A stretch of DNA of 63,102 bases, the filler included, from Collodictyon triciliatum (Eukaryota): the NCBI GenBank assembly GCA_043381765.1. It is 11 parts of 11 records of this genome, joined end to end, with 100 filler letters (N's around TTAATTAATTAA, not from the genome) between each part and the next. Parts side by side here need not be neighbours in the genome. Positions count along the whole stretch, not along the records: positions 23,387 to 29,128 come from JBHJMP010004983.1; 10 more parts are not named here. One strand, given 5' to 3'. Below are positions 1,658-63,102 of this stretch, in pieces. Under the pieces are notes generated by a model, which was not told the origin of the DNA, did not search any database, and was given only the letters and a program-made list of their open reading frames with translations. Position numbers and translations under genes: made by a program. How positions within the stretch are numbered: position 1 is the stretch's first letter; the number at the start of each line of letters is the position of its first letter.

Positions 1658-4600
1658 ATGAGATTTCTACCAAAATCTTCTTTGACCGTTTGCGTTCTGG
1701 GTAAAAAATTATGTAATGTTGAAAATTTTACTTTCTTTGTAACTATAATAATAATATTTAGGATTGATGATATATTTTCAAATATATGTCGCCGCGGGGA
1801 GCAATAATTCACTGATAAATACTCTAATTGGTCACACTGACTTTGTTTGGAGTGTAGCTATTTCTCCCGATGGTTCAAAAATCGTCTCTGGAAGTCAAGA
1901 TTATACAATTAAAGTATGGAATCTTGATGATGGATATTTGATTCGTACACTGAGGGGTCATAATTCAGCTGTTCGTGCTGTTGTATTCACCCCTGATGGT
2001 TCCAAATTTATTTCTGGTGCTGTTGATATCAAAATTTGGAATCTTTCTGATGGAACTTTGATTAAATCATGGATAGCCCATACTGGGGGTCTAAGCAGTA
2101 TTGCTGTTACTCCAGATGGTACCAAAATTGTTTCTGGAAGTAGTGATAAAAGTATCAAAATCTGGAATGCTTCTGATGGAAGTAATATACGTACGATTTC
2201 TAATGGTTGCTGTCTAGTTACAACTGTGGCTATTACTCCTGACGGTTCAAATATTATTTCAGGAGGAACCGAACCTCCTATAAAAGTTTGGAATCTTTTG
2301 GATGGAAAGTTATTTCGAACCTGGAACAGTGATTCTAGCAGTACTTCCTGTGTTGTTGTTACTCCTGATGGTTCCAAAGTTATTTCTGGGAGTGGTTTCA
2401 TCAAAATATGGAATATTTCTGATGGAACATTGATTAGAACCCTGACGGCAGGTGCTCGGGGCATCGCTGTTACCCTAGATGGTTCCAAAATTATCTCTGG
2501 AGGTAGCAGTGACACCGTTAATATTTGGAACCTTTCGGATGGAGCTTTGGTTCTGACACTAAATAGTCATACGGATGATATTCAAAGTGTTGCTGCTACT
2601 CCTGATGGTTTAAAATTCGTTTCTGGGAGTAGAGACAAAACAATCAAAATTTGGGGAAACTGGGAAATTTGTGATGCAGGATTCTTTTATAACACTACAT
2701 CGGGGTCATGTAATATCTGCCCACCCGGAAGCTATGCCATTTTTGGAAGTTTATCTTGTTCCCTATGTCCTACCGGGACACATAATCCATCAGCCGGCCA
2801 ATCATCATGTATTCCATGCAATGCTGGAACTTTCAGTCAATCACCTGGCCAAGCATTTTGCACCTCATGTAATCCTGGTACCTATAATCCGTATGCTGGA
2901 TCCAACAGTGCAGATGCTTGCATTCTTTGCGCTGTTGGAACTTACAATTCAAGGAAAGAACAATCAGCTTGTTTATTCTGCGAAGAAGGAACATACAACA
3001 ATAAAACAGGCCAAACATCATGCAAAAATTGTGAACCAGGAACTTACACAAATTTGAGAGGACTGACATCGTGCTTTGATTGTCCGACTGGTTTTTACAA
3101 TAAAGAATCAGGGAAAAAATTTTGCACACCATGCAGTCCAGGAACATATTCAAACTCTACTAAAGCAATTTCTTGTGATAAGTGCCAAACTGGTACTTTC
3201 AATCCAGATGTAGCATCAGCAAATATAAGCTCTTGTAAACCTTGTCCACCAGGGAAATTTTCATTAAAATCAGGTGAATCAACGTGTGAACTTTGTTCAT
3301 CTGGTACTTACAATCCATACTTAAGTCAAACTGGCTGCATAAATTGTACGGACGGAACTTACAACCCACGATTTGGCTCCAGTTCAAATACATCATGTAT
3401 TCAATGCCCAAAAGGAACGTATGGTAATGAAAAAAAATATGAATGTATAGCATGCCCAGCTGGTACGTATAACAATCAAACTGGCTCATTCGATGATTTA
3501 TCATGTACCCCATGTCCGAATGGAAGCTACAGCTCAGAGAGAAGCTCTTCATGCAGCTCATGTTTATCAGGATTCTATCAAGAAGGGGGAATTATAAAAG
3601 ACTCTAAATCGTGCTATGCTTGTCCAAAAGGCACATACAACTCAAAATCCGGCTCATATGGAAACAAATCATGTATTGAATGCCCACAAGGTACTTGGAA
3701 TGATAGACATGGTCAAGAATCATGCACATTTTGTCCAGCCGGTACATTTAACAATCAAACTTTCTCATTTGATCAATCATCATGTATCCCATGTCCAAAC
3801 GGAAGTTATAGCTCAGAGAGAAGCTCTTCATGCAGCTCATGCTTATCAGGATTCTACCAAAAAGAGGATATCAAAAAGAACTCAACATCATGTTATGCTT
3901 GTCCAAAAGGCACATACAACTCGAACTCCGGCTCATACGGATACACTTCATGCATCGAATGCCCACAAGGTACTTGGAATGATAAGGATGGTCAAGCGTC
4001 ATGCACATCATGTTCATCTGGAACATACAACAATCAAACTGGCTCATTTGATCAATCATCATGCATATCATGTCCGAATGGAAGCTACAGCTCAGAAAGA
4101 AGCTCTTCATGCAGCTTATGCTTATCAGGATTATACCAAAAAGAGAATGCCAAAAAGAACTCAACATCGTGCTATGCATGTCCAAAAGGCTCATTCAACT
4201 CGAACTCCGGCTCATACGGATACATATCATGTATTGAATGTCCACAAGGTACTTGGAATGATAGAGATGGTCAAGCATCATGCACATCGTGTCCAGCTGG
4301 TACATTCAACAATCAAACTGGTTCATTCAATGTATCATCATGCATTCCATGTCCAAATGGAAGTTACAGCTCAGCTGGAAGTGCATCATGCAGCTCATGC
4401 TTATCAGGATTCTATCAAAAAGATGGTGTCAAAAAGAACTCAACATCGTGCTACGCTTGTCCGAAAGGCACATTCAACTCAAAATCCGGCTCATATGGTG
4501 AATTATCGTGTATTAAGTGTCCACAAGGCACTTGGAATGATGAAAAAGGCCAGGAATCATGCACATCATGTTCAGTTGGTACATATAACAATCAAACTGG

Positions 4601-5749
4601 CTCATTTGATCAATCATCATGCATATCATGTCCGAATGGAAGCTATAGTTCAGAAAGAAGCTCTTCATGCAACTTATGCTTATCAGGATTCTATCAAAAA
4701 GAAGGTATCATAAAAGACTCACAATCATGCTATGCTTGTCCAAAAGGCACATTTAACTCACAATCCGGCTCATATGGTGTCTCATCATGCATTGAATGTC
4801 CACAAGGTACTTGGAATGATAAGGATGGTCAAGCGTCATGCACATCGTGTCCAACTGGCACATTCAACAACAAAACTGGCTCATATAATCAATCTCAATG
4901 CATTTCATGTTCAAATGGAAGTTACAGCTCAGAAAGAAGCTCTTCATGCAGTATGTGCTCATCTGGATTCTATCAAAAAGAGGGTATCATAAAAGACTCA
5001 AACTCATGCTCTCCTTGTCCGAAAGGCACATTCAATTCAAAATCCGGAACATATGGTGAATCATCGTGCATTGAATGTCCACAAGGTACTTGGAATGATA
5101 GAGATAGTCAAGCGTCATGTAAATCATGTTCATTTGGAACACACAACAATCAAACTGGCTCATTTGACCAATTAGCATGTATTGAATGTCCAGATGGAAG
5201 CTACAGCTCAGAAAGAAGCGCATCATGCAGTCTGTGCTTATCAGGATTCTATCAAAAAGAAGGAATAATAAAAGACCCACTTTCATGCTCTCCTTGTTCA
5301 AGAGGCACATTCAATTCAAAATCCGGAACATATGGTGAATCATCGTGCATTGAATGTCCACAAGGTACTTGGAATGATAAGGATGGTCAAGCGTCATGCA
5401 CATCGTGTCCAGCTGGTACGTTCAACAATAAAACTGGCTCATTTGATCAATCATCATGCATATCATGTCCGAATGGAAGCTACAGCTCAGAAAGAAGCTC
5501 TTCATGCACTTCATGCTTATCAGGATTCTACCAAAAAGAGGATATCAAAAAGAACTCAACATCGTGCTATACTTGTCCGAAAGGCACATTCAATTCAAAA
5601 TCCGGCTCATATGGTGAATCTTCATGTGAAGAATGTCCACAAGGTACTTGGAATGATAGAGATGGTCAAGCATCATGCACATCGTGTCCAGCTGGTACAT
5701 TCAACAATCAAACTGGTTCATTCAATGTATCATCATGCATTCCATGTCC
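1658..5749 (+). CDS. Secreted or surface protein: signal peptide, 7 WD40 repeats, long Cys-rich (GCC2/GCC3, ephrin-receptor-like) stalk; 3' truncated
   Basis: ATG at 1658, exon 1658-1700 and a 61-nt GT-AG intron 1701-1761 join in frame to the 1345-aa ORF, giving MRFLPKSSLTVCVLGLMIYFQIYVAAG. GH...SGSxDxTIKxW repeats follow, then CPxGTY/CxxC repeats to the scaffold end. Confidence 0.85.
3453..5749 (+). repeat. 279-bp (93-aa) higher-order coding tandem repeat, about 8 copies
   Basis: Unit of five Cys modules (20+16+20+20+17 aa); equivalent DNA positions 3511 and 3790 are 279 bp apart. Confidence 0.9.
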
Positions 5750-5849
5750 NNNNNNNNNNNNNNNNNNNNNNNNNNNNNNNNNNNNNNNNNNNNTTAATTA
5801 ATTAANNNNNNNNNNNNNNNNNNNNNNNNNNNNNNNNNNNNNNNNNNNN
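5750..5849. other. Artificial scaffold linker (44N-TTAATTAATTAA-44N). Identical linkers start at 11600, 17447, 23287, 29129, 34972, 40813, 46654, 52491 and 58351
   Basis: Same 100-nt structure each time, with a 12-mer that gives stops in all six frames. Confidence 0.97.
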
Positions 5850-8446: not shown

Positions 8447-10290
8447 AAGCTCCTGCCGCGGTGATTTCACTGATTAAAAATTTTCCCACAAGGATTACGC
8501 TTTTTTTTTAAAAGTATGACACACATAACAAACGATGTAACAATTAGATGACCAATAGATGGAAAATATGTGACAAACGATGTAAAAAAATAGATAACAA
8601 AAAGAAAATCAACATAACTCTCGCGGGATGTCTCTGAATCCCGCCCCCCGCACGGATCAAGGCGGATTTGCGTGGCTCCAAGAACGCCTGAGCTGACCTG
8701 ATTCCGCCCTTTTTTTTGGCTTGTCATCCTCCTGGAAAAGCATTAGTATCTGCTTATGGACACATCACTTAGTACCATATATGAAACATCGTCCTTTTTG
8801 GAGCACTTTACACATAAGCGGAATTACAAAAGCGGCGTTGTCATCCAAAAAGGGAAGTACTTTTGCGAAACTTTCGCTCGTAATGGAAGCAGACCACAGC
8901 ATGTCTACGTGTGATGACGACATGAAAGATGGTGATGCTCCATTTGGAGAATACAGACACGTGCTATGTCCAATTCAGGAAGAACCGTCCAGAAAAGACA
9001 GTTAACACACGACACACCACAATTGGAGTTTGGAAATGCATGAGAAACGCCAGTTCCATACAAGCGTTGGTTTCAATTTTTCTTCCTTAACTCGTCACCT
9101 CTTCCGACTTTGTCTCTGCGAAAGTGCAAGAGGGTTTGAAGTTGCGGGCATACTTGCGCTTGTGGGGGCGGATGGCATCAGAACAGAATCGAACAAAACA
9201 AAACAAAACAAAAAAAAAAAAAAACAAGGGTGCTGTGCTGCATCTGTGTTGTGAGCTTTTGAGCAAATATAATTAAATGCTTCCACAACCCAAATCGACT
9301 TGAGTCAGCAAATCATTAGTTGTGAGGTTGGACGCAATCAAACATACGACTCAGAGCTCGTTGATAGCAGCATTTCGATTACGCAGTGAAACCTATCAAA
9401 AAAAAAGAAAGGAAAAGTAATTGAAAAGACAGAAGAGAGGAACAAGATAGGAACACAGAACAATCTTTTCTATTCCTTTCCAACAAGATATGATTAATCG
9501 TTTCCACAGAAGCCTTGTAATCAAAGGCTGATACAACAAAGCGAAGTCTTGAGTAACTTACACCATCACTGTACGTTGTGGTTGGACTTACTGAGCGTGG
9601 CTTTGAGATCGACATTAAACAACTTTGATTTTCATTCATTTGCATAATAAATACCCACATTCGTTCTAATCAACTGAAGACATTTGCCCTGGTCACATAT
9701 TTTGTTTTACACTGAACATCCCACCTCAATTATAAGTACTTTGTTCTTTGAAGTAGGATACTATGACTATATGAGCACATGTTGATTTTGAGCTTTTTTT
9801 CTTCCTCTTTCTCTTGTTATTTTAGCCGACACTATCACCCGCACACAAAGTCTCTTTATTTTCAAAAAGGACCAGAACCCTTCTCTCCTTAAACAAAACA
9901 AGAGAATTGCCGCTTTCTCCTCTACAATATATATTTACACCCCTTAGTTCTCGCCAACGGAACGAATCGCATGTGCTCCTTGAAAGACTCGCATCGATTA
10001 AACCATAGGCGATGATCGAAGAGGATTCCTATTGGGCTCACACACCTTTTATTCTTAAAAAACATATATAAGCCAGGGCGATGCTAGATTATTACTTCGT
10101 GATTTCCTCTATGATTCTGACACCCAAAGTTGAGAAGCTGGCTCACCATTTATGCCCATCCTTCTGGTCTCTCACTCGAATCGATCCCAGTCATCTCCTA
10201 GTGCAATCAACTACCTGTTTTTATTCTCTAATGCGTATCCTTTTAAATGTTTCTTTTTGAAGACTTTTATTTATTTATTTATTTATATAT

Positions 10291-16200: not shown

Positions 16201-17183
16201 NNNNNNNNNNNNNNNNNNNNNNNNNNNNNNNNNNNNNNNNNNNNNNNNNNNNNNNNNNNNNNNNNNNNNNNNNNNNNNNNNNNNNNNNNNNNNNNNNNNN
16301 NNNNNNNNNNNNNNNNNNNNNNNNNNNNNNNNNNNNNNNNNNNNNNNNNNNNNNNNNNNNNNNNNNNNNNNNNNNNNGAAATCTTTCTCGATAGGCGGAT
16401 ATTACTGAGAAAACTTGCCATAGCTACAAAATTTTTTGGGAAAAAAATGAGGCATGGAATAAGTTGAAAGGGTATATAAGAAGAAAATAACATCACATTT
16501 GAATATGCAATGAAATTATTTGAATAGGTATATTTCTTTCGATGCCATTTTTCATTAAAACAAGCTAGTGAATATTGTCATCAATAAAAGCATTAATAAT
16601 TTGGCTTGTTAAAGTACCTGTCCTCTCAACTCCGTAGGAATACCGGAACGGACCATTTTTCGAAGAGATTCCGTTTTCTTTATTTTTTTGGAATCAAACT
16701 CCACACCTTGGATATATTGAGCCCAAACTATTCTTTGCTTTTTTACGCGAATTAGTTCAGCCTCTTGAGCTTTTTCGCGCATTGCAGCCTCATCTGAATT
16801 TAATGGGAATCCATACTCATCTACATGTACCACGTTTTGTTCTCCTCTAATTTTTCATCATATTTGAATATAGCAGAATCATAATCGACTTCCAAAAAAA
16901 AATTCAGTTTTTAGATGTATTTTTTTCCTTTATTCGATTCTGTTTTTAGATGTATTTAATAGATGATGATGAGGGGTATGTAACATAGGGAAATTTATCA
17001 ATGAACGACTAATTTATGATGTTGTCATCATATAAGAATACCATGATAGTATTTATTACAGTTCTGAGTGAAACTAATCGATGTACATAAAAGGAAAAAT
17101 TACGATTGAACTTCGTTATCAAATCCGTCCACTGATCCAGATAGTCTTCCTCCTTCCACCAATTTATGATGGTGTGGTATTGT
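13267..17183 (-). CDS. TBC-domain Rab GTPase-activating protein, multi-exon, 5' truncated, with an internal N gap
   Basis: Spliced motifs VDEYGF, LRKMVRSGIPTELRGQLW, LLLFMSEEEAFW, QWLMCLFLNTLPFE and RIWDILFFDGSKILLRISL, then a long low-complexity last exon. Confidence 0.9.
16907..16957 (-). mobile_element. 19-bp LINE 3'-end micro-insertion with 16-bp TSD, in a TBC intron
   Basis: GTTTTTAGATGTATTT at 16907-16922 and 16942-16957 flanks TTTTCCTTTATTCGATTCT. Confidence 0.75.
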
Positions 17184-17290: not shown

Positions 17291-17446
17291 TGGTTTATGG
17301 TTTATGGTTTATGGTTTATGGTTTATGGTTTATGGTTTATGGTTTATGGTTTATGGTTTATGGTTTATGGTTTATGGTTTATGGTTTATGGTTTATGGTT
17401 TATGGTTTATGGTTTATGGTTTATGGTTTATGGTTTATGGTTTATG
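17291..17446. repeat. (TTTATGG)n heptamer repeat at the scaffold edge
   Basis: About 22 perfect copies. Confidence 0.95.
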
Positions 17447-21817: not shown

Positions 21818-22425
21818 TCCCCTCCTTGTCCAAAATCCACGTAACACTTGCCTTTATGTCTATCCATTCTATAAAAAAAAAAAAATATTTTGTTACGCGC
21901 TTGAATCAGACAAAAATAAAATGAACGGGTAAAAGGCATTATATCATGGCATCACGTTGTCATTCATTATAGTGACTGCTATCGCAAAATAACCAAAGCC
22001 TGAAATAGAAAAGAGGTAGAGGAAAGCATCGATCTCATCGATGTGGTATTCTTGCTCTACTGGCGAGACGGATATGATTAAACAGAGGGAAAAATAGTAT
22101 TGACAACAACAATAACATAATAATCAATATAACCATAATCATAATAATCAATATATAATAATCATCATCATAATAATAATAATAATAATCGAATGAACGG
22201 AAGAAGAAAATACTGATGAGGAAACGGCCATGAAGGTGAATGAAAGAAATAGGTAATATAATAGGGAAGAGAATTATCAAGGCTAGACTTTATGCTCTGA
22301 GCGCGATGAATGTAGCTGCGAGTTAACAAAAGCACGTAGCATAACCCAAGATTGCAATTTGGGAGCATATTACATCCCCATGCGCACCGCCAATAATCAA
22401 TGTCTTACATAACACATCTTTCTAG

Positions 22426-23286: not shown

Positions 23287-24753
23287 NNNNNNNNNNNNNN
23301 NNNNNNNNNNNNNNNNNNNNNNNNNNNNNNTTAATTAATTAANNNNNNNNNNNNNNNNNNNNNNNNNNNNNNNNNNNNNNNNNNNNGGTTTTTTTTTTGG
23401 GTTTTTGGGTTTTTAGTTTTTTTGGTTTATTTTGGTTTATTTAGGTTTTTTTTTTTTTGGGTTTTTGGGTTTTTGGGTTTTTTGGGTTTTTTGGGTTTTT
23501 TTTTGGGTTTTTTTGGGTTTTTTTGGGTTTTTTTTTGTGTTTTTTTGGGGTTTTTTGGGTTTTTTTGGGTTTTTTGGTTTTTTTGTTACAGCAGATTCCG
23601 ATCTTGTTTGTTGGTTTGCTTCGAGCGATGATTGGTTGTGTGGTTTATCCCGAAGTCGTATGTCATACTTTCCGATGTGGCTATGTGAATTGCGTTTCGG
23701 AACAATATCTAAAATTGTCCAAAATCAATGTTTATTATATAAAATTTTCCGTTTTTATTTCTGTGGTCTTTATGTGTTATATGTGGAATTTATTAAATCA
23801 TTGTTTTGATAGTCGGTTGCAATCAAGAAGCCCTGATAATTGCAGATAATACCACACAATATACCAATTTTTGTGTTCAGAATGAGAATTACAACGGTAT
23901 CCCCGAACATTGTAGTCATCTTTAAAATTGAAGGCGACTGGCAGAGGTTTGCATTGGGTCGAGGTTGGGTGCTTGTGGCTCGTACTTGCGATGAAATAAG
24001 GTCAAACAGGCTTCATAGATTCATCAGTTTATTTTATACATAACTATTCTTACGATTGTGTAGATGGACACAGGAATATTCAGAGCACACCAACCAACTT
24101 AGCCAGAGTGGGAAAGGCATAGAAGGTGATGGAAAAAAAGAAAGACAGCGCGGTGTATTTGAAGACAAAACTTGAAAATGGCGTGATAGGCGAGCAAATG
24201 TTAATTTTCTTAGGAATCTTTTCGGGAGTGTTCCATAGGTAAATGCACTTGTAATAGCGAGGCTGTCTCATGTGTACTTCTTAGTTCGTGCTTTTCTTCT
24301 ATTTTCACATCCCGGGGATGTCTAAGGGCAAAGGCGAGCGATTCCGCTTTTCGCGCTCTGGCTGGATGATGACCTTCATGACCTTTTTCCAAAAGAAATC
24401 AAAGAAAAAACTTGAATAAAAGAGACGGGGTAAAATAGATGATTGCTAATCAAAATATGCAAAATAAAATAATTCATAACAAATAAAAAAACACAAGATT
24501 TATCTGATTGTATTATTCGCTTATATACTACAGTTGGTCGATAAGTTTAATCTGAATCATAATATCCCAATATAGAATTATATACATAAATTGATTGTAT
24601 ATGTGTTTATATTGTAAAAAAAAAAACCAATTCGATCAGCTGTGTGGCATCATCAAACTTTGTCACGAAGTGAACAACGGTATCTGGGTATTATTGGATA
24701 ATAAAAAAAAAATCGATAGCCAAATATCACTCTATGACTAATTCTAAAGACAA

Positions 24754-27644
24754 CTATAATAAATAAACTGTACCACTATATTCACTTTCTTGATGAAGCG
24801 GAGTCTGACGAGCCTTAATTTCAGCTAATCTTGGGGCCTTTTCGGGGTCTCTGAAGCAAAAATTTTCTATCTCTTCCCATTTTGAAATCCTTTGCTCTGC
24901 ATTAGAGCGGGCTCTGATTTATTTATTTAAAAAAAGAGATTGTTTTAGATTCTTTCCCCAACAGAGGAATCTTGACTTTTTCATTATTTGGAGATGTAAA
25001 AATTTGAGTCCACATAGATTAGCTTTACCTCAGCCTCCAATCTTCATACTCCCCATGACATTTCCGAAAAAACGCCTCATCAATGCTTGCGTAGAAGGCA
25101 AGAACATGCGACGAATAGCCTCTTATGTAGCTATTTTTTTGTGAGGACACTATTGACTTTTTTTCAAATAAACAATAATCCCTTACAGGAGCTAACAGCT
25201 AGTTTGGATAAGAATAAATAATAAAAAAAAATAATCATACTCATCCCAATGAGTTCTAATATTGCTCATCAACGGCGCGAATATTTTAGGCAGTACAACG
25301 GATCGATAGTCAGCAGTTATTTTTAAAAACTTTTCGTCATTCCAAAGAAACAATGCCTTTTCTGCAACCTTTAATATAATATACGATCCATAGTAGGGTT
25401 AGTATCGAATTAGTCCCAATACACGTTAAATGATTTTTTTTTTATATTTGCAAAGTTTTTTTTTTAAAAAAATCTCGTTTTCACTAACCAAGTGGTTTTT
25501 ACTAGAAATAGATTTTGCTACTTTAGTGATTAACCGAGATATGAGCTGGGAGATGGACTGGTAATCAATTTTTACTAAAGTCTGATAAGAAACATCAGTG
25601 ATTTTTATTCATAATTTTTTTCCTTTATTCGACTCAAAGTGTAGCGAGGTTATGCATTTTTATTCATAATTTTAATGGGATAACATTTGACAGTGACTTA
25701 CACATTGAATTATCTCAAGAAACTTTAGCTCCTTGACACTGTTTGCGACTGGCCAGTATCTCACAATCGCCGTTAGCAGCTATGTGAATATAGATTCAGT
25801 CATTAAAATAACGCTTTATCATTAAAATTTTGTGACCTATATACCATACCTTAATGGACAAGACCTTATATTTACCGACAAAGAGTTCAAGGCAATTGTT
25901 GAGATAATAGCAATACGAAACATATTGCTTCGGCTTGAGTAATAATAGCAAAATTTCTTCAAAGAATTTTACGTGCTCTTGTTTAAGCGGTAAAGAAAGT
26001 CCATCTATAATACTAAAAATCATCGATAGGATAAATTAAGTAATATACCACAAAATGGCGCTGTAAATTTTTACAGTTAGCATATAATATGAAATTACAT
26101 ACTTGCCAAGTATCTCTAACATATCACAAATTCCATAGTTTATATCGGTCTCGTAAACAAATTTAGAAATAGAATCACCGATAGCCTTTCTCAAGAGACC
26201 TCTCGTGGTAGATACCTGTTGTTTTTTCTTGATATTAACTCTACTGGCAACCTCAATAGCGAATGTTTTAAATTATTCACCTTACTATACAGATTGCGAA
26301 TCACAGACTTGACGTAATGTCGCTCTCTAGGGTCAGGACTTTCGAATAAATTAACAAACTAAAAAGAAAAAACTACTGTTTAACGGATATCAGTAATGCT
26401 AAAATCATCATTATAGTATTTTCTAATCGTAATATAAATTGAATTCGCCTCTACTATAAGTCACTTGTCACGCACTCGATGAAGTGATATGGAGAAGCAA
26501 AGGAAGTGCAAACAGCTCATAAAAAATAAAAAAAAAATACAGTGAACCAATAACCTGAGAGATAAAGATTTCGTCAAATTGTTTCTTGGAAATCTCAGAG
26601 TCAAAATGAGGAGAGCCCATAAAAACAAGGAGCAATTCATACACTAACTGAAATATTAGGGTATTGTCAATTAAGTTAAAGACAAATTTTAAATGGAATA
26701 TATTTACTGATATATGGGACCAGGCAGGATCGAGTGTTGCAGGCTCATCGAGCAGCTCATACGTCTCAGATTGTATTGTGGGACCATTAGAAAATGACCG
26801 AAATAAATTTGCTGATACCTTGCAATAAGAATATGTACTTCATTAATATTTATCAAGTTGTGTTACAATATATCTAGATATGATTCGTATAAACTTGCCA
26901 TTTGAATGAGATTGATGTAAACAGATTCTGGAAAAGGAGAGCGATGTTCTGGTATGAAAGAAATGAGTTCTTGCAGAGTTTGTGACTTTATTTCTTTGGA
27001 AAGAACGTCTGCTTTAGTGTCGTTCATATCAAAAACGAGGCAGCATTGACGCAATTTTTTTTGTAAAAGCGAAGTTCGATCAATCGCAAGAACATCTGTG
27101 TATTGATTTTTCTTTTAAGAAAACAGCATCATGTAATTTACAAGATGATAACACATACCACAAAATGGAGGAAGCCTCTCAATCTTTGATAAGTGTGGCA
27201 ATTGTTTTGGTGGGGGCATGCAAGTTCTCCTGTAATAGCCAGATGTGGTGAGGCATTTTGATGTGCTCTGAGTACCGCTGTCATAAATCACGGGTGGTGT
27301 ACATATTGGAGTCGGAATAGGGATGCCAGAGTTATCTGATGATGGTGTTTGCGCAAGGGAATCTACTGGTGGTAGGTGGACCTTTCCCCAAAGGGGTTGC
27401 TACGACAATAAAAGACAAGTATGAAGTATCGCCATTTTATGGAGAGACATGGCTCAAATTTGGAGTTTAGATTCTTTCAATTGTTTCAGTAAATCCCTTT
27501 TACAAACAGATATACTATGGAAACCTGTTTTTGCTCTGCTGTAGACCTCGAAAGCCCTATTTGAAAAGAACTCGAGCCGTTCGGGGAGCGTTGGATGGAT
27601 GGTAACAATGTGTTGCGTGAAGTGGATTTCGTGAGAGAAGGCAT
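24754..27644 (-). CDS. Protein phosphatase 2A regulatory subunit B' (B56) family, divergent, about 13 exons
   Basis: Spliced motifs KKLRQCCLVFD, MVSANLFR, DPAWSHI, LFESPDPRER, LEILGNIIDGLSLPLKQEH, RYWPVANSVKE, VAEKALFLWN and THW; stop at 24754-24756; start codon uncertain. Confidence 0.9.
25601..25673 (-). mobile_element. 37-bp LINE 3'-end micro-insertion with 18-bp TSD, in a B56 intron
   Basis: ATTTTTATTCATAATTTT at 25601-25618 and 25656-25673. Insert positions 25623-25655 match 53712-53744 at 31 of 33 nt. Confidence 0.85.
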
Positions 27645-28924
27645 CACTGTAACCGGCCGAATCCGTTCCTCTGGTGTCTGGGTGATGTGTAATTGCAAGA
27701 TATAGTCACTATGAATGAGCAGAGAAATTCAAACGCTAACAAGAAATCAATAGAAGAATTGTCAATAGCATATAGCTTGTCTCATTATATTTTAGCAGAT
27801 TTTTATTGGACAGTTTTTTCTTCAATACATATTGGTATTTTTATTTAAAATAAAACTTGAAAACCTTGCCATGCGACCCATTCAGAGACCTGTTGCCTTC
27901 AGCCTTGGATACTTTCTTAGCGGTGCTGCCTTTCAGAACCATTCCTGTCTTTTCAATGGCTAATCGTGACTTGTAATTCAGTACATGCCTTAATTTATGC
28001 ATACAATCTTATAATTTTTGTTTTTCTTTCGCAAAATGATATCTAGTTAAACTTTTGTAAAGGACAGTATTGAACCATTCCTGGCAGCAGGAATCATGTT
28101 GATGAGTTTGCTTCTGTCTCCACTCCCTTTTGTTTATTAGATTTATCAAATGGCTCTGAATGCACTCGAGTTTTGCTGAAATCATGTCCATGGTGGAATT
28201 GATTGCTTTGAGGCTTGGTATCTCATCCGCGTGAGCGATCTTTGTTTCGATCGGTCTCATATATATACCGTTGCTTTTGGATTTCTGCCGGTTTGGATTG
28301 CGGAGTTTTTCATCAGACACACTCACTCATTCCAAGTTCGGTAGATACATCATGCAATACTGAAAAAAAAAATAATGAAAAATCACGAAGGAAGAGAGAA
28401 GAAGTAGAAAAGTTTGGTAAGAAAGACAGGTCCGCTTTTAACAAAATGTGATGGTGCTCCTGACGTATTTATGAGCGGCCAGTGATGTCGAAAGGCGTCA
28501 TCACAGGTCAGTTTGGTCAAAGAGGGAGCCATTTATGAGTCCTGTTCATGTTATCTTCTGTCATGAGGTGCTGTCCAGTGCTATAACTGCCTTATTTGAA
28601 GAGCGTACCCTCGCTTGAATAAGATGATAATGACATCCGGTGTGTTGTAACTGCGTCATACATTATTCGTTTGCGCGACCGCACATATTCCTGAATAAGG
28701 TTATTCAAAGGCTCATATATGATTTTGTCATTTTAAGATATCTTGGATTCTATAAAATTAAGTCGGAGTGGATAGAAGGGTCTTTGTTGAGTCCGTGTGT
28801 GGCAGTGAAGTTGATATGTTATAATTTCCAAATATTGTGTGCATATATGGAATTTATATGAATATTAAACTACTTGTGGCAGTTTGGCGAGCCAAAATAG
28901 ATCTAATGAATCTGCACGTGATGC

Positions 28925-29128
28925 AAAAAACAACACAAAAAAACAACACAAAAAAACAACACAAAAAAACAACACAAAAAAACAACACAAAAAAACAACA
29001 CAAAAAAACAACAAAAAAACAACACAAAAACAACACAAAAAAACAACACAAAAAAACAACACAAAAAAACAACACAAAAAAACAACATAAAACAACATAA
29101 AACAACATAAAACAACATAAAACAACAT
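28925..29128. repeat. A-rich (AAAAAAACAACAC)n / (AAAACAACAT)n repeat at the scaffold edge
   Basis: Read directly. Confidence 0.9.
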
Positions 29129-35548: not shown

Positions 35549-38500
35549 TTAAGCTGTGGCTTTCTGTCTCCACTCAGCAGCTTTCTCGGTGTCCTTCTCA
35601 ACACCCCATCCATTCTCATAGCATTCAGCCATCATTTGAGCCTGGAACTTGGTGAACTTGCCCTGCTCACAATGGGCAGCAAAGTCCGCATCAAAGGAAG
35701 CAGCACCGATAGAAAGTAGGAGGGATTTGTTGAATTGACTCAATCCCGTGACATTTCTGATTTGAATGCTTCCACCTTGCAGCTTTCTTGGGCCGATAAT
35801 CTGGACTGTCTTTGCATCTTGGATTCTATTGGTGTCAATCATGTTCATCGCGTCACTTGTTCTGTTGAATACTGCGAAGACTTCGTCCGGCTTTTCTTTG
35901 TTGACAAGGTATTTTCCTTGGGTGTAAGTCACTTCTGATTTTTGCACACTGTGTGTTTGACTTCCAGTGGCTACATCCCAAATACGTATAGTCTTATCAT
36001 CGCTTCCAGAAGCCAGCCAATTTTCACCATTCGGTCCTTGAATACTGCAAACACTATTGACCCAATTTGTATGTCCACGTAATGTTTTGATTTGGTTTCC
36101 TGTGGTTACATCCCAAATACGTATTGTATTATCATCGCTTCCAGAAGCCAACCACTTTTCACCATTCGGTCCTTGAATACTGCAAACACTTCTGACATAA
36201 TCTGTATGTCCTTCTAATGTTTTGATTTGGTTTCCTGTGGCTATATCCCAAATTCGAATTGTGTTATCACGACTTCCAGATGCCAACCAATTCTCACCAT
36301 TCGGTCCTTGAATACCGCAAACACTCATGACAGGTTTTGTATGACCTTCTAATGTTTTGATTTGGTGTCCTGTCGCTACATCCCAAATACGTATTGTTTT
36401 ATCATGACTTCCAGAAGCCAGCCAATATTCACCATTCGGTCCTTGAATAGTGCAAACACTCCTGACAGGATTTGTATGACCTTTTAGTGTTTTGATTTGG
36501 TTACCTGTGGCTACATCCCAAATAATTATTGTATCATCCCCACTTCCAGAAGCCAACCAATTTTCATCATTCAGTCCTTGAATACTGCAAACACTATTGA
36601 CTGGCTCTCTATGACCTTCTAATGTTTTTATTTGGTTTCCTGTGGCTACATCCCAAATATGTATTGTTTTATCATTACTTCCAGAAGCCAGCCAATTTTC
36701 GCCATTCGGTCCTTGAATACTGCAAACACTAGTGACAGGCCTTGTATGACCTTCTAATGTTTTTATTTGGTTTCCCGTGGCTATATCCCAAACACGTATA
36801 GTTTTATCTTCACCTCCAGAAGCCAACCAATTTTCATCATTCGGTCCTTGAATACTCCAAACACTATTAACACCATTTGTATGACCTTCTAATGTTTTGA
36901 TTTGGTTTCCTGTGGCTACATCCCAAATACGTATTGTTCTATCACCACTTCCAGAAGCCAGCCAATTTTCACCATTCGATCCTTGAATACTGCAAACACT
37001 AAAGACCCAATTTGTATGACCTTCTAATATTTTGATTTGGTTTCCTGTGTCTAAATCCCAAATACGTATTGTTTTATCATCACTTCCAGAAGCCAACCAG
37101 CTTTCACCATTCGGTCCTTGAATACTGCAAACACTATATACAGAACTTGTATGACCTTCTAATGTTTTGATTTGGTTTCCTGTGGCTACATCCCAAACAC
37201 GTATTGTTGCATCATCACCACTTCCAGAAGCCAGCCAATATTCGCCATTCGGTCCTTGAATACTGCAAACACTCCAGATAGGTCCTCTATGGTCTTCCAA
37301 TCTTTTGATATGGTTTCCTGTGGCTACATCCCAAATAAGTATTGTTTCATCACCACCCCCAGAAGCCAACCACTTTTCACCATTCGGTCCTTGAATGCTG
37401 CAAACACTCATGACAGCATTTGCATGACCTTCTAATGTTTTGATTTGGTTTCCCGTGGCTACATCCCAAATACGTATTGTATTATCATGACTTCCAGAAG
37501 CCAGCCAATTTTCACCATTCGGTCCTTGAATACTGCAAACACTATTGACAGAATCTGTATGACCTTCCAATGTTTTGATTTGGTTTCCTGCAACCACATC
37601 CCAAATACGTATTGTGTTATCACTACTTACAATAGAAGCCAGCCACTTTTCACCATTCGGTCCTTGAATGCTGCAAACACTCCTGACAGAACTTGTATGA
37701 CCTTCTAATGTTTTGATTTGGTTTCCTGTGGCTACATCCCAAATACGTATTGTGTTATCACGACTTCCAGAAGCCAACCAATTTTCACCATTTGGTCCTT
37801 GAATAGAGCAAACACTATAGACAGAACTTGTATGTCCTTCTAGTTTATCATGGGGAATTCCGAATTTCACATTATTCATATTCGCATTATCAAAAACACA
37901 ATCACCAAGCATCGAATTCGTGAAATCAACACCATCCAAGTTGGCACCAGTGAGCTTTGCACCATCAAGGATTGAGTTACTGAGATTTGCATGTGGAATA
38001 TTGATGTTTGATAAATCCATTCCACCGAACGAAACATTCATGAAATTCAAAAGTGTGATGGCATTAGATGCAGCCTTTGATTTGCTTTCATCAGTCTTTG
38101 ACATGCAGACAATGCTGAATAATGATACAATAATTTGTTCACGATTCCATTCCTCATCCAGCTTTGCATCATCAAGAGTTTCACAGATGAATTCCTTGAC
38201 TCTTGTAAAATCGACAGGCTCTTTGTTGATTCCGATTTCTTTTGAATGGACGGACAAGTATTCGCACGAGTTTAATGTTCTGGGGTGAATCCATCCGAGT
38301 TTATCAGCAAGTCTGTCTCTCATCTCATCCCAGAATGCCACTGCTTCGTCATGTAGCTTATTCTGTTTGCAGTATTGGTACGCTTTCTCACAAGCCACCC
38401 AGCAGTCCCAATTTTCATAGGATGACTTTTCACCATGTCTAACAGCAGCTGTTTTGTAAAGCTGAATGGCGGCTTCATGCTCTTTCTTGTCTTTCATGAA

Positions 38501-40812
38501 AAGGATAATGTTGTCAATCTGATGGGTGTCTTTCAGTGACATTACAGTGTGTGTCTCCTTTCTGATAGCAGCTGCCTTCTGGAAGTATTCCACGACTTGG
38601 TCCAATCTAAATGAAGGTATATTAGTTATTATTTATTCATATTTTGCAATTGTTAATCAAAATATTCGATTCATATAATAATAGAGAAATTTACCTTTGA
38701 AGCTCAAAGTTTGTTCGGCCAACATATTCCAGAAAGCCAGCATTATCAATATCCGAAACCGTAAATCCTTTCATATCGATGTTGAAATCCTCGACATCTT
38801 TGCTGAAGTCCAACAGGAAAACATTTGCCAGCCTTGTTCTCTCGTGAATCCATCCAAGTTTATCAGCGAATATGTCTCTCATATCAGCCCAAAATTCGAC
38901 GCCACTTTCATGTAGGTTGTTATCCTTGCAGTGTTGGTGTGCAGTCTCACAAGCCACCCAGCAGTCCCAGTTTTCATAGGAGGACTTCTCACCATGTCTG
39001 ACAGCAGCTGTTTTGTAAAGCTGAATGGCGGCTTCATGCTCCTTCTTGTCCTTCATGAGGCGGATAATGTTGTCAATTTGTGAGCCATCTTTCAGTGACA
39101 TGATGGTCTTGGTCTCCTTTCTGAACGCAGCTGCCTTTTGGAAGCAATCAACACATTGAGCAGAACTAGATGTATGTGCATTAGTTAATATTTATTGTTT
39201 TTACTGGTTTTAATAAAATATTTAATTTCTTTTAATATAAAGAGAAAAAAAACCTTTGAAGCTCAAAATTTGTTCGGCCAACATTCTCCAGGGAAGTCGC
39301 ATAATCAGCATGTTTTTCGCCCAGTGTTCTCACGCGAATATCCAGCGTCTTCGTATAGGCCTCCAAAGCACCCTTAAAGCTAGGATAATGTGAGTAAATA
39401 CATTATAGTTGCTTCAATTAAAAATATAAATAATTTATAGAAAGAGATACTCTTTCAAATCATAGCTGATGTCTCCAATCATTTCATAGCAGGCCACGAC
39501 ATTTGAATGATTTTCACCCAGGGCAAACATGAAAATATCCAGCGATTGCTTTAATGAGGATAAGGCCTCAGTTTTCCTATATAAGGTAAAAGTAATTGAT
39601 ATTTATATAATTAATTAGAATTATATGATGCATAATTTTAACCCCAAATAGAGTCCATACAATGAAACATATGAAGCCAAATATATTTTGCAAAAATTGA
39701 ATGAAAATTATTATTGTTTTATGAAAATATCTGTAATTTAGAAATTCAAACTTTCCACTGGCAAGATGAACGTTTGCAATGAACTGGATTGTCGAGGCAA
39801 CAGATGCATGCTTAGCTCCCAGCGATTTTTCAAGGATTGATTTTGCCTTTTCGTAGTTTTCAATAGACTCTTCATACCTTGGTGATTCAATCATATTAAT
39901 ATTTCTCATATTATAATCATATATAAAACCGCCATTAATGGATATATGTGCTACTTTTTCCCAGCCAGGGAGACATGGCCATAGTTCTGGTACGATGTTG
40001 CGACAAGAGGATGCTCGTTTCCAACTTTCTTTTGGCGGATTTCCATGGCCTTTGTGTATTCAACCAGAGCTTGCTCATTCCTATCATAAAAAATTGATCA
40101 GCATGCACATATTTACAAAAATAAAAAGCGGAATATTAACGTATATAGATGAATCAATTATTACTTTGACTGCTTCACATAGATGTCTCCAAAGCGGTCA
40201 TGTGATTGGGCCACTTGCAAGTCGTTCTCGCCCAGTTGTTTGATTCTCAATTCCAGTGATTTCTTGTATTCATCAAGAGCTTCATCAATCCTATTTCATG
40301 ATAAGCAAATCATAATAATTCCTTTTTGAAACATTATTCATAATTTATTTAACGATGGAAGAGAGCCTTACTTATCCTGTTGCTGGTAGATGATTCCCAT
40401 CTCTTCATGAATGGTAGCGATACGCAGGGAATCATCTGCATTTTTCTCAAGGGCATCGAGACATTTCTTGTAGTAGACCATGGACTCAGCCCAGCTGTTT
40501 TATTTTTATTTTATTTTAGAAAAGTTAGCATTATAAACATCATTTCATGTATTACTTTTAATCATTATTTTATTTTTATTTTTTTACTTTTGGAGGTTCT
40601 TGTAGACACGACCAAGATTCAGGTAATCAGCAGCCTTTGCATCTGTAATTTGATAAATTATTGAACGTATCCATATATAACTCATATTCATGACATAAAT
40701 TCTTCAAAAATACAATAAATTGCATACCTTCTGTCTGATGCTTTCCAAGACGCACATTCAGAACAGACAACAAGAACGAATTCTCAAAAGACTCCAAGAA
40801 AAATCCAACCAG
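35549..40812 (-). CDS. TPR array, duplicated helical module, pentapeptide repeats, 14 WD40 repeats and a SEL1-like tail; 5' truncated
   Basis: Six phase-2 TPR exons (39254-40494) splice in frame to exon 38695-39166 and then to the 1018-aa terminal exon: AASNAITLL...MDLSNINIPHANLS, WD40 x14, MAECYENGWGVEKDTEKAAEW. Confidence 0.88.
35960..37845 (-). repeat. 14 near-identical 135-138 bp WD40 coding repeats
   Basis: 45-aa unit GHTxxVxSVCSIQGPNGENWLASGSxDxTIRIWDVATGNQIKTLE. Confidence 0.95.
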
Positions 40813-41046: not shown

Positions 41047-42803
41047 ATTCTCTGTTCGATTAAGATTTTCCATGGAATCATCAGATAGTGTGGAGCGCTC
41101 AGTGGACGGTAAATCTATAGGCGGGAGTGACAATGCAATAGACTGGCGCTTATCCTAAAAAATATTAATGTGATAAACTTATGTCATATTGTAAAAAGAT
41201 ACTAGATTACAAGCCAACATCCCCACCATCTTGCACATAATTGAAATGAAGAATAAAAAAAAATACTAGATTACAAGAGGTTATTAATTTATACCTTTCT
41301 ACTTTTTGGAGAAGTAACAGGATTTGAAATGGGCTCAGGGTCGAGGCAGGTGTTTTCCCTGACGATGTCAGCACATATGTCGCCGCTCATCAAACGCAAA
41401 TGCTCCAATCCTATTTGACACAGTGACCATCCATAAATTTGCATTTCTATTATTATTATTATCATTATATATGTGATTGTAATGTTCGAAATACAAAAAC
41501 TTAATACAAACCAATGATTGCCTCAAGAAGGTCGTAGAAATAGTCAAAGTAAGGATGTCTCGTTAGGAAGCAATAGCAGACAGGAGAAAAGATACTATGC
41601 TTCCTCAAGGAGCTTTCTGAAGAATTATCCTTTATTTAAAGGATGCAAGTTTGTGAATTGAATCACCGATGAAATATTGTTTGCAAAAATAGAAAAAAAA
41701 AGCCAAATCTAAAAGAGTATAGAATATATTCGCTATTCAAGGACAAAAGTTACATACAGGTATGATATTCATGGTAGTGATGCAAATTCCATAAATATAT
41801 CCTTCCAGTGTATTCAAAACAAAAACATGGGATGATTGATTTCGAATTCCACGAGTGGATTGATAAACAAGCTCAAGAATGTTTGAAGCTGAAGGAGTCT
41901 TGCGAACAAAATGCAATTTTGCGCCGCTAGGAAAGCAGAATGGGGTTGCATCTGAGCCCAGAGAAGTTCTACATAGTCGAATAAGTAATGAGCATATGGT
42001 GGTCGGCCTGTTATCACTCTCTCTTTTTTATTTTAGAGAATCAATAAAGTCGCTCTATTGGAAAAATAAAACCGCAAAGTAAAATAAAATATAAAGTTGG
42101 GTTTGAGTGAGATAAAAGGAGAGATGGATTTAATATCACAGACTCTGTCGATGGATATTGGAAGAACAGCTTCGGCTCAAATGTTCTGTCCTTCACCATA
42201 GGATCATCGCGGTACTCGTCGATGGTCTCGTTTGGAACACCAACAACAAGGAATAGTTCGTAAAGATCCCCAACACCAATCTTTCGGCTGCGCAGTTCAT
42301 TTCGGTGAAGTAGGTAACTCTCACGCTTCTCTGCTGCCAGTGCCTCCGCCTGGAACCAGATGTCGCTATGGGGAAACAAGACAAAGATGTTTGGTCGTGA
42401 TAAAACTCTCATACTGCATTTCAAAAAAAACAACAACACAAAACAAATAAGCAAAAAGCAAAAATGAAACAAAAAACATGAATAAAATGCGTAAATAAAA
42501 AGAAAAAGAAAAAGAAAAAGAAAAAGAAAAAGAAAAAGAAAAAGAATAAAACAAGAAAGAAAAGTAAAAATAAAGTAATAAAGTAATAAAGTATAAAAAA
42601 GTATAAAAAAGTATAAAAAAGTATAAAAAAGTATAAAAAAAGTTTAAGAAAAGTTTAAGAAAGTATAAAAAGTATTAAAAAAATATAAAATAAAATAAAA
42701 CCTCTCACGTCGGTGTCTTCTGTTGAACTGTCGGGTGAAGCGCCTTTGATTGACACGCTGCCTCTCATACACGGACATCGCGAAGCAACTGAGCCTTCAA
42801 TAT
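41047..42803 (-). CDS. DENN-domain protein (Rab GEF family), N-terminal exons, 3' truncated
   Basis: LYELFLVVG, FEPKLFFQYP, PFCFPSG...KTPSASNILE, HVFVL...YGIC and CYCFLTRHPYFDYFYDLL in spliced exons; 5' exon structure ambiguous. Confidence 0.8.
41199..41277 (+). mobile_element. 49-bp poly(A)-tailed retro-insertion with 15-bp TSD, in a DENN intron
   Basis: ATACTAGATTACAAG at 41199-41213 and 41263-41277 flanks CCAACATCCCCACC...GAAGAATAAAAAAAA. Confidence 0.8.
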
Positions 42804-48067: not shown

Positions 48068-51000
48068 ATGAGAACAGCACCACTCATGATGTTCCTGTTG
48101 GTGTTGTGCTCCCTTTTTGACTATTCCTTTGCGGGGTGAGCGCTATCTTTTTTAAAAAATACATCGCTTTCTTATGTCTTATTTTGTTCCTAAAATTTTA
48201 GAGCAAAGTGCTCATTTACAAGAGAGGAACTCTTATCCATGCATGTTGAAGACGCTTTCTGGATTCTGTTGGATTATTATGACCAAGAATGTAAAATCAA
48301 TACGAATGGCTCAGGTGGACCTCATCCACCACTCGGAATTACCTTACCTTGTTCGATTGACTACCCAAGAAAGCAAATGGGCTCCGATGAGAGATATGAG
48401 AATATCAATTACTCTACAGAATATACAAGTCTTTTCAAACGAAAAGATAACCCAATATTGAAAGGACTTGTGACTCGACAAAATACTCCAGACTATAAAG
48501 ACATTTCCATGAATGGCACATACAAAGAAAGTCAATATACTCTTTTAGTCCAGTTTTACAATTTGCTTGACGGAGACAACTGGTTGGAAAATAATGGTTG
48601 GAAAAATGAGGATATTCCAATTTGTGAGTGGTTTGGAGTGGGGTGTCTCGACACTTGTTCTGATGAGGAATACCGGGTAGGTCTCCATAATAATAGATTT
48701 GATATAATATGATTTTAAACTGATGGATAATTGCAGGATGACACTTGCCCAATAATTGAACTTTCCCTGCCAAAGAACAATCTTTACGGTGATATCGGGC
48801 GCTCTTCATACATCATGGAACAATTACCGTCTCTAAGAAACATTGATTTGAGCTCCAACTTGATTCATGGAGTCTTACCAGATTTCAATCTACCAAATTT
48901 ATTATCGTTGCAGCTATCTTTGAACCGAATAATAGGAACAATGCCTAATTTTCAAGAAATGCCAAAGATTGAGTATCTAGATATTGAAGGAAATATGCTG
49001 GAAGGTTCAATACCAGACTTCTTAGGAATGCCACTCCTTAATTATTTTTATGTTGGGGTCAGCAAGAAGTTGGCAGGTACAACCACCGTATTATAATGAA
49101 ATTGTCAGAAAATGAATGGTACCAAAAAAAATTGCGCATTAGGAATCTTGCCAGATTTCACAGGATTGCCTTCTTTGCAATTACTCTACATTTACGAAAC
49201 TAGTATATTTGGTAGAAATCCATTATAATTATGTGTATATATATGTGCCTAATTGTCACGCATACCAACTAGATAAGTATGTTAGAATATATAAGCTGCG
49301 CGAAACGAAAGGAGATTTTAATTTTGTGAAAATTCTGAGCCACTTTTTTTTTAAAAAAAAAAATAAAAAAAAATAAACCGGGTGCAATAGGAACTGTTCC
49401 AGATTTCAGCAACCTTCCGAGTATAATGGAATTTTACTTTTTCAACAACCAATTCACAGGTATTGATACGCACTTTTTTTCCTTTATCCGATTCAAAATT
49501 TTGATACACTTTTAATACTCTATTGTCTATATTTCCATTTCAAATTCAAATCAAACGTATCTGTCAATATAATTGATATATGTGTGGAAATAATTGATGC
49601 TATTTTATCATTCCAATTAATATTATAGGCACAGTCCCAAACTTTAGTAGAATACCTTTTGTGAAAAGAATTTATCTCTTCAGCAATCAACTAAGCGGTA
49701 ATTTGTTTGTTTGCTTGTTTGTTTGTTTGTTTGTTTGCTTGTTTGTTTGTTTGTTTGTTTGCTTGTTTGTTTGTTTGTTTGTTTGCTTGCTTGTTTGTTT
49801 GTTTTGATTCACATGCTCACATGATGTATTTTGTGTTTATTTTTCAAACCTTACTTAATTTTTCTTTTTTAGGAACGATTCCTGACTTTGATGGTATTCC
49901 ACTTGTCACTGATATCATTATCTCAAGCAATCAATTAATAGGTAAATTTGCATATATGACCAACTTTATAATATTTAGAGATATAATATAGTTTTCTTTA
50001 CTCAGGGACGATACCCGACTTTAAGAGTATTCCATACATCAGTCTATTATTTTCTAATAGCAATCAAATTAATGGTAAAACATTATGATTAAATTGCTTG
50101 TTTTGTAAGGAAATAGAATAAAATACGATAGGTATATTTTGTCTAAATTTAATTGTCTTCTTACAGGAACGATTCCAGACTTTAGAAGCATTCCTAATGT
50201 TTACATGTTTGGTTTTTCTAACAACCAACTGAGTGGTAATTGATTGTTGCTTGTGTTTTTGTTTATTCCAACTAATGGTGACTATATCTATGAAGGATTT
50301 ATGATATAGGCACTTAAACTATTTACTACAGGGACTATTCCAGAATTTAGTGGTACAAACACTGTGGATTATATCGATATTTCAAACAATAATATTTCAG
50401 GTCGATATAGAGCCATGCTATAATTTATATCATTGTTACAATATAGTACTGTTCAAACAATTATGTGGTAGAGTATTGATTCAACTAAAAATATAGGAAG
50501 TATACCTAACTTTAAGGGGTTTTCTAGAATAAGAGCGCTGGATCTCTCTAGGAACAATTTAACTGGTATTTTGGGTACATCTTTTGAATTCTATATGTCT
50601 AATTCTGACTGTAGGTATGCTAGGTACTATTCCAAATTTTTCAAGTCTTGCAACAATCGAATATCTGTCAGTTTACAACAACCAGCTCGAAGGAAGAATC
50701 CCGAACTTTGAAAATTGTCCAAAATTAAATGAAACTGTTCTATTTAGAAACAATCTAAGTGGTTATTTGCCTTCATTCAAACTGCCTTATCTAATTAATA
50801 TGGATGTTAGCGAAAATCTAATTATTGGCTCTATTCCAAATAACTGGGAAATTCCGTCAATACAGAGCATCGATTTATCAAGAAATAGGATGAGTGGCAC
50901 CGTTCCAGCTTATATCGAGGAGTTTTTGCAGCTGAACTCACTTACATTATCCCACAATCAATTCACTGGAAGTATGCCAGACTACTTCTGGAATCTGCCA

Positions 51001-52752: not shown

Positions 52753-53711
52753 GGTTGAAGTCATAGTATCTACCACGAGATACAAAATTGAGTGAATTGC
52801 AGGTAAAATCCCCAATAATGTTTCTGCACGATCATGTAAAAACAACCCGATCAACGCACAACCCAGGATGTGACATGATCTTAAGGAGAATCGCATATAC
52901 TTAGAGCACCCCAGGTTGGCAAGCCACACTTTGCAGCATTAGTGCTAACGCGCGGGCTCACGCCAAAATGTCCTTTTCAATATTTTTCGGGTTCTTGGTG
53001 GAGAAAACAAAGAAAAGCATATGATTTTTGTACCCACTCGAACCCTGGGCATCCATCTTTCTCTGTGAGCCGACTGTGCTCGGTTTTCATGCCGCAGGCG
53101 GGTTGCTGGGTTGTCACACGCAAGGCAGTTTTAATTGCCAACTCAAAAGGACTCGCCCAGATTCGGATTATCCTTTTGTGCATTGGGAAGACTTCACCTT
53201 CTTTGGAGAATCGAAGCTATTACCAAATTTGGATAAAATGTGCATGCTTTTGAGGGCAGATGATGCTTTAGGCACCCACCAAAAAAATAATGTGCTGGAT
53301 GGTCTTTCCCGATGCCACCCACAGGCAGCCGCTAGAATATGAATCCGTCTTGCAGGCGAAGCCGTAAACTGCGAGCCAGCTCTGCCATACAGGGGAGATA
53401 AAGATGCAATGGTTTTCGAAGTGGGGGTTTCGCTTCTGCTTCCTCCTCTATTAACTCGCCTTAGATGCCCCGACGCCCTGCTGGCGAGTTCTTTGGGGGA
53501 CTAATGCTCATCAACCGAAGGAAGCTTCAAGGAATTTTATTTTTCTTCGCCCTAGGAAGTTTTTTTGGGGTGTAATTTATTGCATGAATCATGTCGACCT
53601 TGCTTGCATTCTTAACCGACAGCCGATTTTGACGTTGCTTTTCAGAGGAGTGGGAAATCATGTCCGCTTCACACCCTGGAGAGTGTGATAGGGTTATAGT
53701 TATTTTCCCTA

Positions 53712-58233: not shown

Positions 58234-58297
58234 GTGTGTGTCTTTGTGTGTGTCTTTGTGTGTGTGTGTGTGTTTGTGTGTGTGTGTTGTGTGTGTC

Positions 58298-58350
<53 letters not shown>
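58234..58350. repeat. (GT)n microsatellite at the scaffold edge
   Basis: Read directly. Confidence 0.95.
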
Positions 58351-63002: not shown

Positions 63003-63102
63003 ACAAAAAACATAAAAACATAAAAACATAAAAACATAAAAACATAAAAACATAAAAACATAAAAACATAAAAACATAAAAACATAAAAACATAAAAACA
63101 TA
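63003..63102. repeat. (AAAAACAT)n repeat
   Basis: Read directly. Confidence 0.95.

Follow-up and report, generated by a model that had tools for sequence, protein, structure and literature searches.

In this study, we describe three very short insertions in the genome of Collodictyon triciliatum (assembly GCA_043381765.1), each of which carries the 3' end of one and the same long interspersed nuclear element (LINE) family. The window, by which we mean the whole stretch of DNA analysed (63,102 nucleotides), is not a single locus; it was put together from 11 pieces, each about 5.75 kb long, with N44-TTAATTAATTAA-N44 spacers between them. At three places in it, referred to as sites A, B and C, templated LINE tails of 34, 14 and 17 nt, counted from the A-run, are followed by A-runs of 3-7 nt and lie between direct repeats. 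Target-primed reverse transcription of L1 elements classically leaves three marks: a nick at TT/AAAA, short target-site duplications (TSDs) and 5' truncation. We consider it highly probable that a single L1-like (APE-endonuclease type) LINE family inserted at these three sites in independent events, each truncated after 14-34 nt.

Results

Three short insertions with a common 3' end

Two longer copies of the family were available for comparison, a degraded remnant in the window and a metagenome contig, L001. Site A had been described in a first-pass annotation of the window as a 37-bp insert between perfect 18-bp direct repeats in an intron of a B56 gene, and direct reading at 25601-25673 bears this out. 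The repeat is ATTTTTATTCATAATTTT; the insert reads GCATAACC...AATAAAGGAAA in minus orientation, and its A-run runs on into the AAAA that opens the duplication. A hand count gave the same 31 equal positions of 33 between the insert and the remnant at 53712-53744 that had been claimed before. The two have a 15-mer core in common, and the agreement of the insert with the L001 tail is closer still (33 of 34 nt). The element lies in sense orientation to the B56 gene, brings in an AATAAA and shows no microhomology at its 5' junction. The insert and one copy of the duplication make up 55 of the 120 nt of the intron, which therefore measured 65 nt before the insertion.

Shorter versions with a common 3' end had been claimed at 16907-16957 and 49463-49513, and both were found there. 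At site B, perfect 16-bp repeats surround a 19-bp insert whose tail is identical to that of L001 over all 14 nt; a single extra A stands at its 5' junction. At site C, the repeats are imperfect (13 matching positions with a 2-nt gap), and AAT lies beyond the tail match at the 5' junction. The element at this site is antisense to a gene with leucine-rich repeats (LRR). As to the claim that the inserts are intronic, it holds for sites A and C, which lie in GT-AG introns, while site B lies upstream of a TBC-domain exon, either in an intron or in intergenic DNA.

The recurrence of the tail is not expected by chance. The motif TTCCTTTATTCGAYTC, with at most two mismatches, matches three times in the window against 0.15 matches expected, and three matches were reached in none of 100 shuffles. 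AAAGG followed by an A-run occurs at 15 distinct places of the window; at only three of them, sites A, B and C, does the match to the LINE tail extend over 14 nt or more.

A window-wide scan for repeat pairs found 14 against a mean of 17.3 per shuffle. These shuffles were inflated by low-complexity scaffold ends and were replaced by a control for each site, in which the insert was kept fixed and its own AT-rich flanks were shuffled in 20000 trials. No shuffle reached the repeat of 18 at site A or the repeat length at site B (0/20000 each), and the repeats at these two sites are thus beyond chance. The case of site C is weaker: 115 of the 20000 shuffles attained its gapped repeat score of 10 (p ~0.006).

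In element orientation, the target sites read CCCATT/AAAATT (A), TCTATT/AAATAC (B) and AGTATT/AAAAGT (C), in agreement with the TT/AAAA, TT/AAAT and TT/AAAA noted earlier. TT/AAA is thus present in 3/3, and TTAAA makes up 0.41% of positions where the window is AT-rich (388/94864). A preference for TT/AAAA-type nick sites is accordingly seen at every site, with n = 3 only. The duplications of 18, 16 and 13/15 bp fall within the variable range of about 7-20 bp of L1-like LINEs. Beyond the A's that come from the target, each site has 3-4 A's. The signature of target-primed reverse transcription that the first-pass annotation had recognised is therefore upheld by the TT/AAA target, the duplications of 13-18 bp and the variable 5' ends. 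Coordinates are given in Table 1.

Table 1. Positions of the insertions, of their host introns and of the LINE remnant in the window
Feature	Position	Strand	Remark
Site A, TSD copy on 3' side of element, 18 bp	25601-25618	-	Ends 19 nt upstream of the 3' splice site
Site A, 37-nt insert made up of the last 34 nt of the LINE 3'UTR (25622-25655) and A3 (25619-25621)	25619-25655	-	Sequence reading
Site A, TSD copy on 5' side of element, 18 bp, TT before it	25656-25673	-	Sequence reading
Intron of B56 gene (PP2A regulatory subunit) with site A, GTAAGT...CAG, 120 nt	25582-25701	-	PF01603 on adjoining exon; visual reading of frames and splice sites
Site B, TSD copy on 3' side of element, 16 bp	16907-16922	-	Length reached in 0/20000 flank shuffles
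Site B, 19-nt insert: LINE tail of 14 nt (GAATCGAATAAAGG) between one extra A and A4	16923-16941	-	L001 comparison
Site B, TSD copy on 5' side of element, 16 bp, TT before it	16942-16957	-	Sequence reading
Site C, TSD copy on 3' side of element, 15 bp	49463-49477	-	Begins at LRR intron position +4
Site C, 23-nt insert: LINE tail of 17 nt, with CGGAT in place of CGAAT as its one change, between AAT and A3	49478-49500	-	Motif and L001 comparison
Site C, TSD copy on 5' side of element, 13 bp, 2 nt shorter than partner, TT before it	49501-49513	-	Gapped match
Intron of LRR gene with site C, CAG|GTATTG ... TTATAG|GC, 169 nt	49460-49628	+	Splice-site reading
Degraded 5'-truncated LINE copy, about 795 bp	53705-54500	-	zf-RVT match, P0001 identity, L001 alignment

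The parent LINE family

The remnant and the independent contig L001 show that the sequence common to the three sites is the genuine 3' terminus of a LINE family. The remnant comprises the C-terminal part of the second open reading frame (ORF2), with frameshifts and a 27-bp deletion, up to a stop near 53807. Then follows a 3' untranslated region (3'UTR) of about 100 nt, which closes with the shared tail at 53712-53744. Its 3' end has decayed (GAAGTAGGGAAAATAA), and no target duplication is recognisable around it. L001 was the one contig returned by a pattern scan of the JGI metagenome contigs with the tail, while the tail pattern had no matches in the genome-contig collection and none in the viral-contig collection. 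It is a second, better-preserved copy of the same element, at least 1040 bp long with the 5' end not included, and its element end ...TTTGAATCGAATAAAGG (...GAATCGAATAAAGG) passes through A10 into unrelated DNA. The first-pass annotation had taken the inserts to match a LINE 3' end, a claim that LINE copies ending otherwise would have contradicted; both available copies end in this sequence plus an A-run.

Two features of L1-like LINEs are found in the family. An A-run after the 3'UTR closes L001 (...AATAAAGG and A10) as well as sites A-C (the same end and A3-7). A C-terminal cysteine-histidine knuckle is weakly recognised in the remnant (zf-RVT, PF13966; E 1.2e-4, 23.1 bits, under the cut-off of 27.5) and above the cut-off (34.1 bits) in P0001, an environmental protein 60% identical to the ORF2 of the remnant. 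Neither Exo_endo_phos nor RVT_1 was matched among the 144 window ORFs of at least 90 aa, and no available copy reaches the 5' part of the element. An exhaustive HMMER search with P0001 returned 16 relatives, all of them environmental (metagenome) fragments. All four relatives longer than 1200 aa, which are 27-34% identical to P0001 in the C-terminal part, have the domains in the order Exo_endo_phos, RVT_1, zf-RVT. A word search for longer protein relatives gave one match and a second such search none. The term L1-like, used by the first-pass annotation, agrees with the zinc knuckle at the C-terminus and with the order of domains in the distant full-length relatives. It appears a reasonable label, taken from those relatives and from the target motif and not from the family's own endonuclease and reverse transcriptase. 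It is a new, undescribed LINE family of a familiar kind, whose truncated copies include an unusually short class.

Copy number and environmental DNA

A search of public sequencing runs for words of the B56 scaffold listed only freshwater or aquatic metagenomes. Three such runs sharing 6-12% of these words, and one added run of the same study, were compared with positions 23700-28850. The runs are labelled X1-X4, and X1 and X2 come from one study. In the bin 25592-25763, which holds site A, the summed contig depth was 69.5 in X1 and 73.6 in X2, against maxima of 10.4 and 21.4, respectively, among the remaining 29 bins; a depth summed in this way is no measure of copy number and gives no length spectrum. 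Among the 23 contig pieces listed, seven lie only on 25613-25655, with unlike sequence on one or both sides, and one of these is a contig of 41 nt with a depth of 42.1. From the depth peak and the tail-only pieces it follows that the tail is repeated in the environmental DNA of X1 and X2. Some contigs of X2 run past 25655 in the way the LINE does and represent longer copies. Three contigs of X1 stop matching exactly at 25655, where the site A insert has its 5' end, and continue into non-LINE sequence, with an agreement of 0.74; these could be other copies truncated there, or one locus in several strains.

The window itself contains three short copies and one long copy, a tally from 11 short scaffolds with microsatellite ends. 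Micro- or minisatellites stand at the start and end of nearly every scaffold (e.g. 1-231, 17291-17446, 23393-23585, 28925-29127, 58257-58350 and 63006-63102), which suggests that the assembly was broken at repeats; small satellite-ended scaffolds have the look of a short-read assembly. The ratio of 3:1 is biased, since a repeat-broken assembly keeps only copies below read length and since short introns tolerate only tiny inserts. We regard it as doubtful that a scar of 14-40 nt with its TSD, too short for repeat finders, is the usual product of this LINE's insertion attempts in this genome, present in thousands of copies and a steady source of intron growth.

Other features of the window

A fourth short insert with a poly-A end, of unrelated sequence, was observed between perfect 15-bp repeats at 41199-41213 and 41263-41277. 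It comprises 49 bp (41214-41262), ends in GAATAAAAAAAA in plus orientation and has the target AAG/ATAC instead of TT/AAAA; its body has no second copy in the window. The insert could have come from an mRNA tail or from that of another LINE family, and hints at the same abortive process acting on other RNAs.

Further repeat pairs were of a different kind. A 16-bp pair at 38693/39252 was rejected as a retro-insert: it belongs to a tandem segmental duplication of about 560 bp (38693-39267) and is not a TSD, because the 16-bp edge repeat runs on with mismatches. The duplicated unit is part of a gene next to the large WD40 ORF. A very long intron-free ORF at 35552-38632 encodes about 1027 aa of tandem WD40 repeats in near-identical 135-bp units. 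The 13-bp pair at 8528/8573 (8528-8585, 32-bp spacer) was likewise rejected, since neither end of its spacer bears an A-run and no LINE tail is present. At 22116-22155, 16-bp exact direct repeats flank an 8-bp spacer without A-run or LINE tail; both this pair and that at 8528-8585 are probably small duplications. A second very long intron-free ORF (1755-5750, 1332 aa) contains WD40 and 26 ephrin-receptor-like repeats. A profile search of the 144 ORFs identified the genes of the window as eukaryotic (B56, arrestin, PP2C, LRR, WD40/ephrin-receptor-like repeats).

Discussion

The insertions can be accounted for by a single course of events. In AT-rich intron DNA, the element endonuclease would nick the bottom strand where the sequence is of the TT/AAAA type, and the freed T-run would prime on the first few A's past the ...AATAAAGG end of the LINE RNA. 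Priming at the very start of the A-tail is suggested by the very short A-runs, with 3-4 A's beyond those of the target. Copying would then cover only 14, 17 or 34 nt of the 3'UTR, the short cDNA would be joined across the staggered break 13-18 bp away, and fill-in would give rise to the flanking duplications. Joining at the 5' side looks like end joining, as there is no microhomology at site A and 1-3 extra bases are present at sites B and C. We infer the order of these events, the joining pathway and the cause of the stop, be it enzyme fall-off, a cut template or early repair of the break.

The same machinery may have been at work and the shortness may have another origin, namely LINE RNA templates that were already cut or degraded, or the selective survival of tiny inserts in introns of 65-170 nt and in a short-read assembly. 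We give this explanation a serious, somewhat less than even chance. The family does have longer members, namely the remnant of about 795 bp, the L001 copy of at least 1040 bp and the copies in the X2 contigs, and scaffolds of about 5.75 kb ending in microsatellites make it likely that longer repeats break the assembly. A long insert would probably be harmful 19 nt from the 3' splice site (A) or 3 nt from the 5' splice site (C) of a short intron. One discrete short template, however, is at odds with three different 5' ends (14, 17 and 34 nt). Cut templates or filtering would alter the cause of the shortness and not the nature of the inserts, and no result separates this explanation from early termination by the LINE. 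Whether the short inserts instead form a separate non-autonomous element, a very small SINE-like (short interspersed nuclear element) retroposon consisting only of the borrowed LINE tail, is a question raised by the three X1 contigs, as several copies may share their end point at 25655 before non-LINE sequence begins. We think this very unlikely. The three window copies differ in their 5' ends, 14-34 nt is too small to hold a promoter, and sites A-C have neither the fixed 5' end, the internal promoter nor the shared length that define a SINE. Moreover, the agreement of 0.74 among the loose X1 ends is close to the 0.69 of the unrelated flanks opposite, among the loose ends listed.

Insertions of L1 that are independent of its endonuclease typically lack duplications and the target motif and are often 3' truncated. 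Capture of LINE RNA or cDNA as filler in the repair of random double-strand breaks would accommodate both the lack of microhomology at A and the 5' junctions of B and C, where 1-3 bases are untemplated; end joining leaves marks of this sort. It is nevertheless very unlikely in view of duplications of 13-18 bp and a TT/AAA target at 3/3 sites, of A-runs that abut the duplication and of intact 3' ends. Least probable of all is that longer LINE copies were later cut down to the tail by internal deletion. The remnant, with its 27-bp deletion and frameshifts, demonstrates that copies do decay, but at 3/3 sites the full 5' TSD copy abuts the tail fragment, and each deletion would need to have ended exactly there. 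In addition, sites A and B are young, judging from their perfect duplications and their tail identity of 33/34 and 14/14.

Several observations weigh against three truncated insertions of an L1-like LINE and the repetition of its tail in environmental DNA. The longest exact repeat at site C, where the duplication is imperfect, measures just 7 nt and was reached in 1531 of 20000 flank shuffles, which is not significant. No full-length element was seen, so that the endonuclease and the reverse transcriptase of the family have to be deduced from relatives at 27-34% identity. Predicted RNA structure offers nothing to explain early stops, since the final 116 nt of the 3'UTR fold no better than shuffles (z 0.4 and 0.2). 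No contig or read in the four metagenome runs bridges site A, and these runs show no allele of the site, be it occupied or empty. X1 and X2, coming from a single study, amount to one line of evidence. In X3, the depth in the tail bin is 0 despite 151-nt pieces identical or near-identical to the scaffold, and X4 has just three reads, none of which touches the tail bin.

Truncation of LINEs at the 5' end is textbook knowledge, and L1-like LINEs with a zf-RVT knuckle are familiar from plants and algae (maize Cin4, Arabidopsis ATLN/Ta11, Chlorella Zepp). The family described here resembles these in its poly(A) end, in strong 5' truncation and probably in an ORF2 with APE, reverse transcriptase and zf-RVT, the full set being seen here only in distant relatives. 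The insertions also resemble the 'dead-on-arrival' copies of human L1 in the TT/AAAA-type target, the 3' A-run, the variable TSDs of about 13-18 bp, the varied 5' ends and the 5' junctions with little microhomology or few extra bases. In contrast to human L1, three of the four family copies in the window measure 14-34 nt, with A-runs of 3-7 nt. One report on de novo human L1 insertions gives a median of 712 bp and describes the 5'-truncated ones as resolved by end joining (PMC11702581); in one human mapping method, truncated insertions are stated to be detected only down to 150 bp (PMC6407172). For Expander/Rex-type families of the stickleback, most fixed copies are described as severely truncated, a large fraction being below 300 bp, and truncated copies as near neutral (PMC3381678). 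According to this account, these families are alike in severe truncation, in a compact vertebrate genome; their copies differ in being hundreds of bases long, in being found by repeat finders and in owing their shortness partly to later deletions (PMC3381678). Narrow full-text word searches of the literature brought to light no LINE family described as consisting mainly of copies below 40 nt, a result of little weight. The 14-34 templated bases with intact TSDs are the extreme of the known truncation spectrum.

On present evidence, the insertions are a well-documented curiosity within a known mechanism. They reveal that LINE insertion can stop at 14 templated bases and still produce a normal target duplication, and that one such event nearly doubled an intron, 19 nt from its splice site. 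Copies this small evade repeat annotation. Estimates of LINE activity, and of the part it plays in small insertions, may thus be too low, especially in the short introns of compact genomes. If the class below 40 nt were dominant genome-wide, this LINE family would lend itself to the question of how reverse transcription is brought to an end during insertion.

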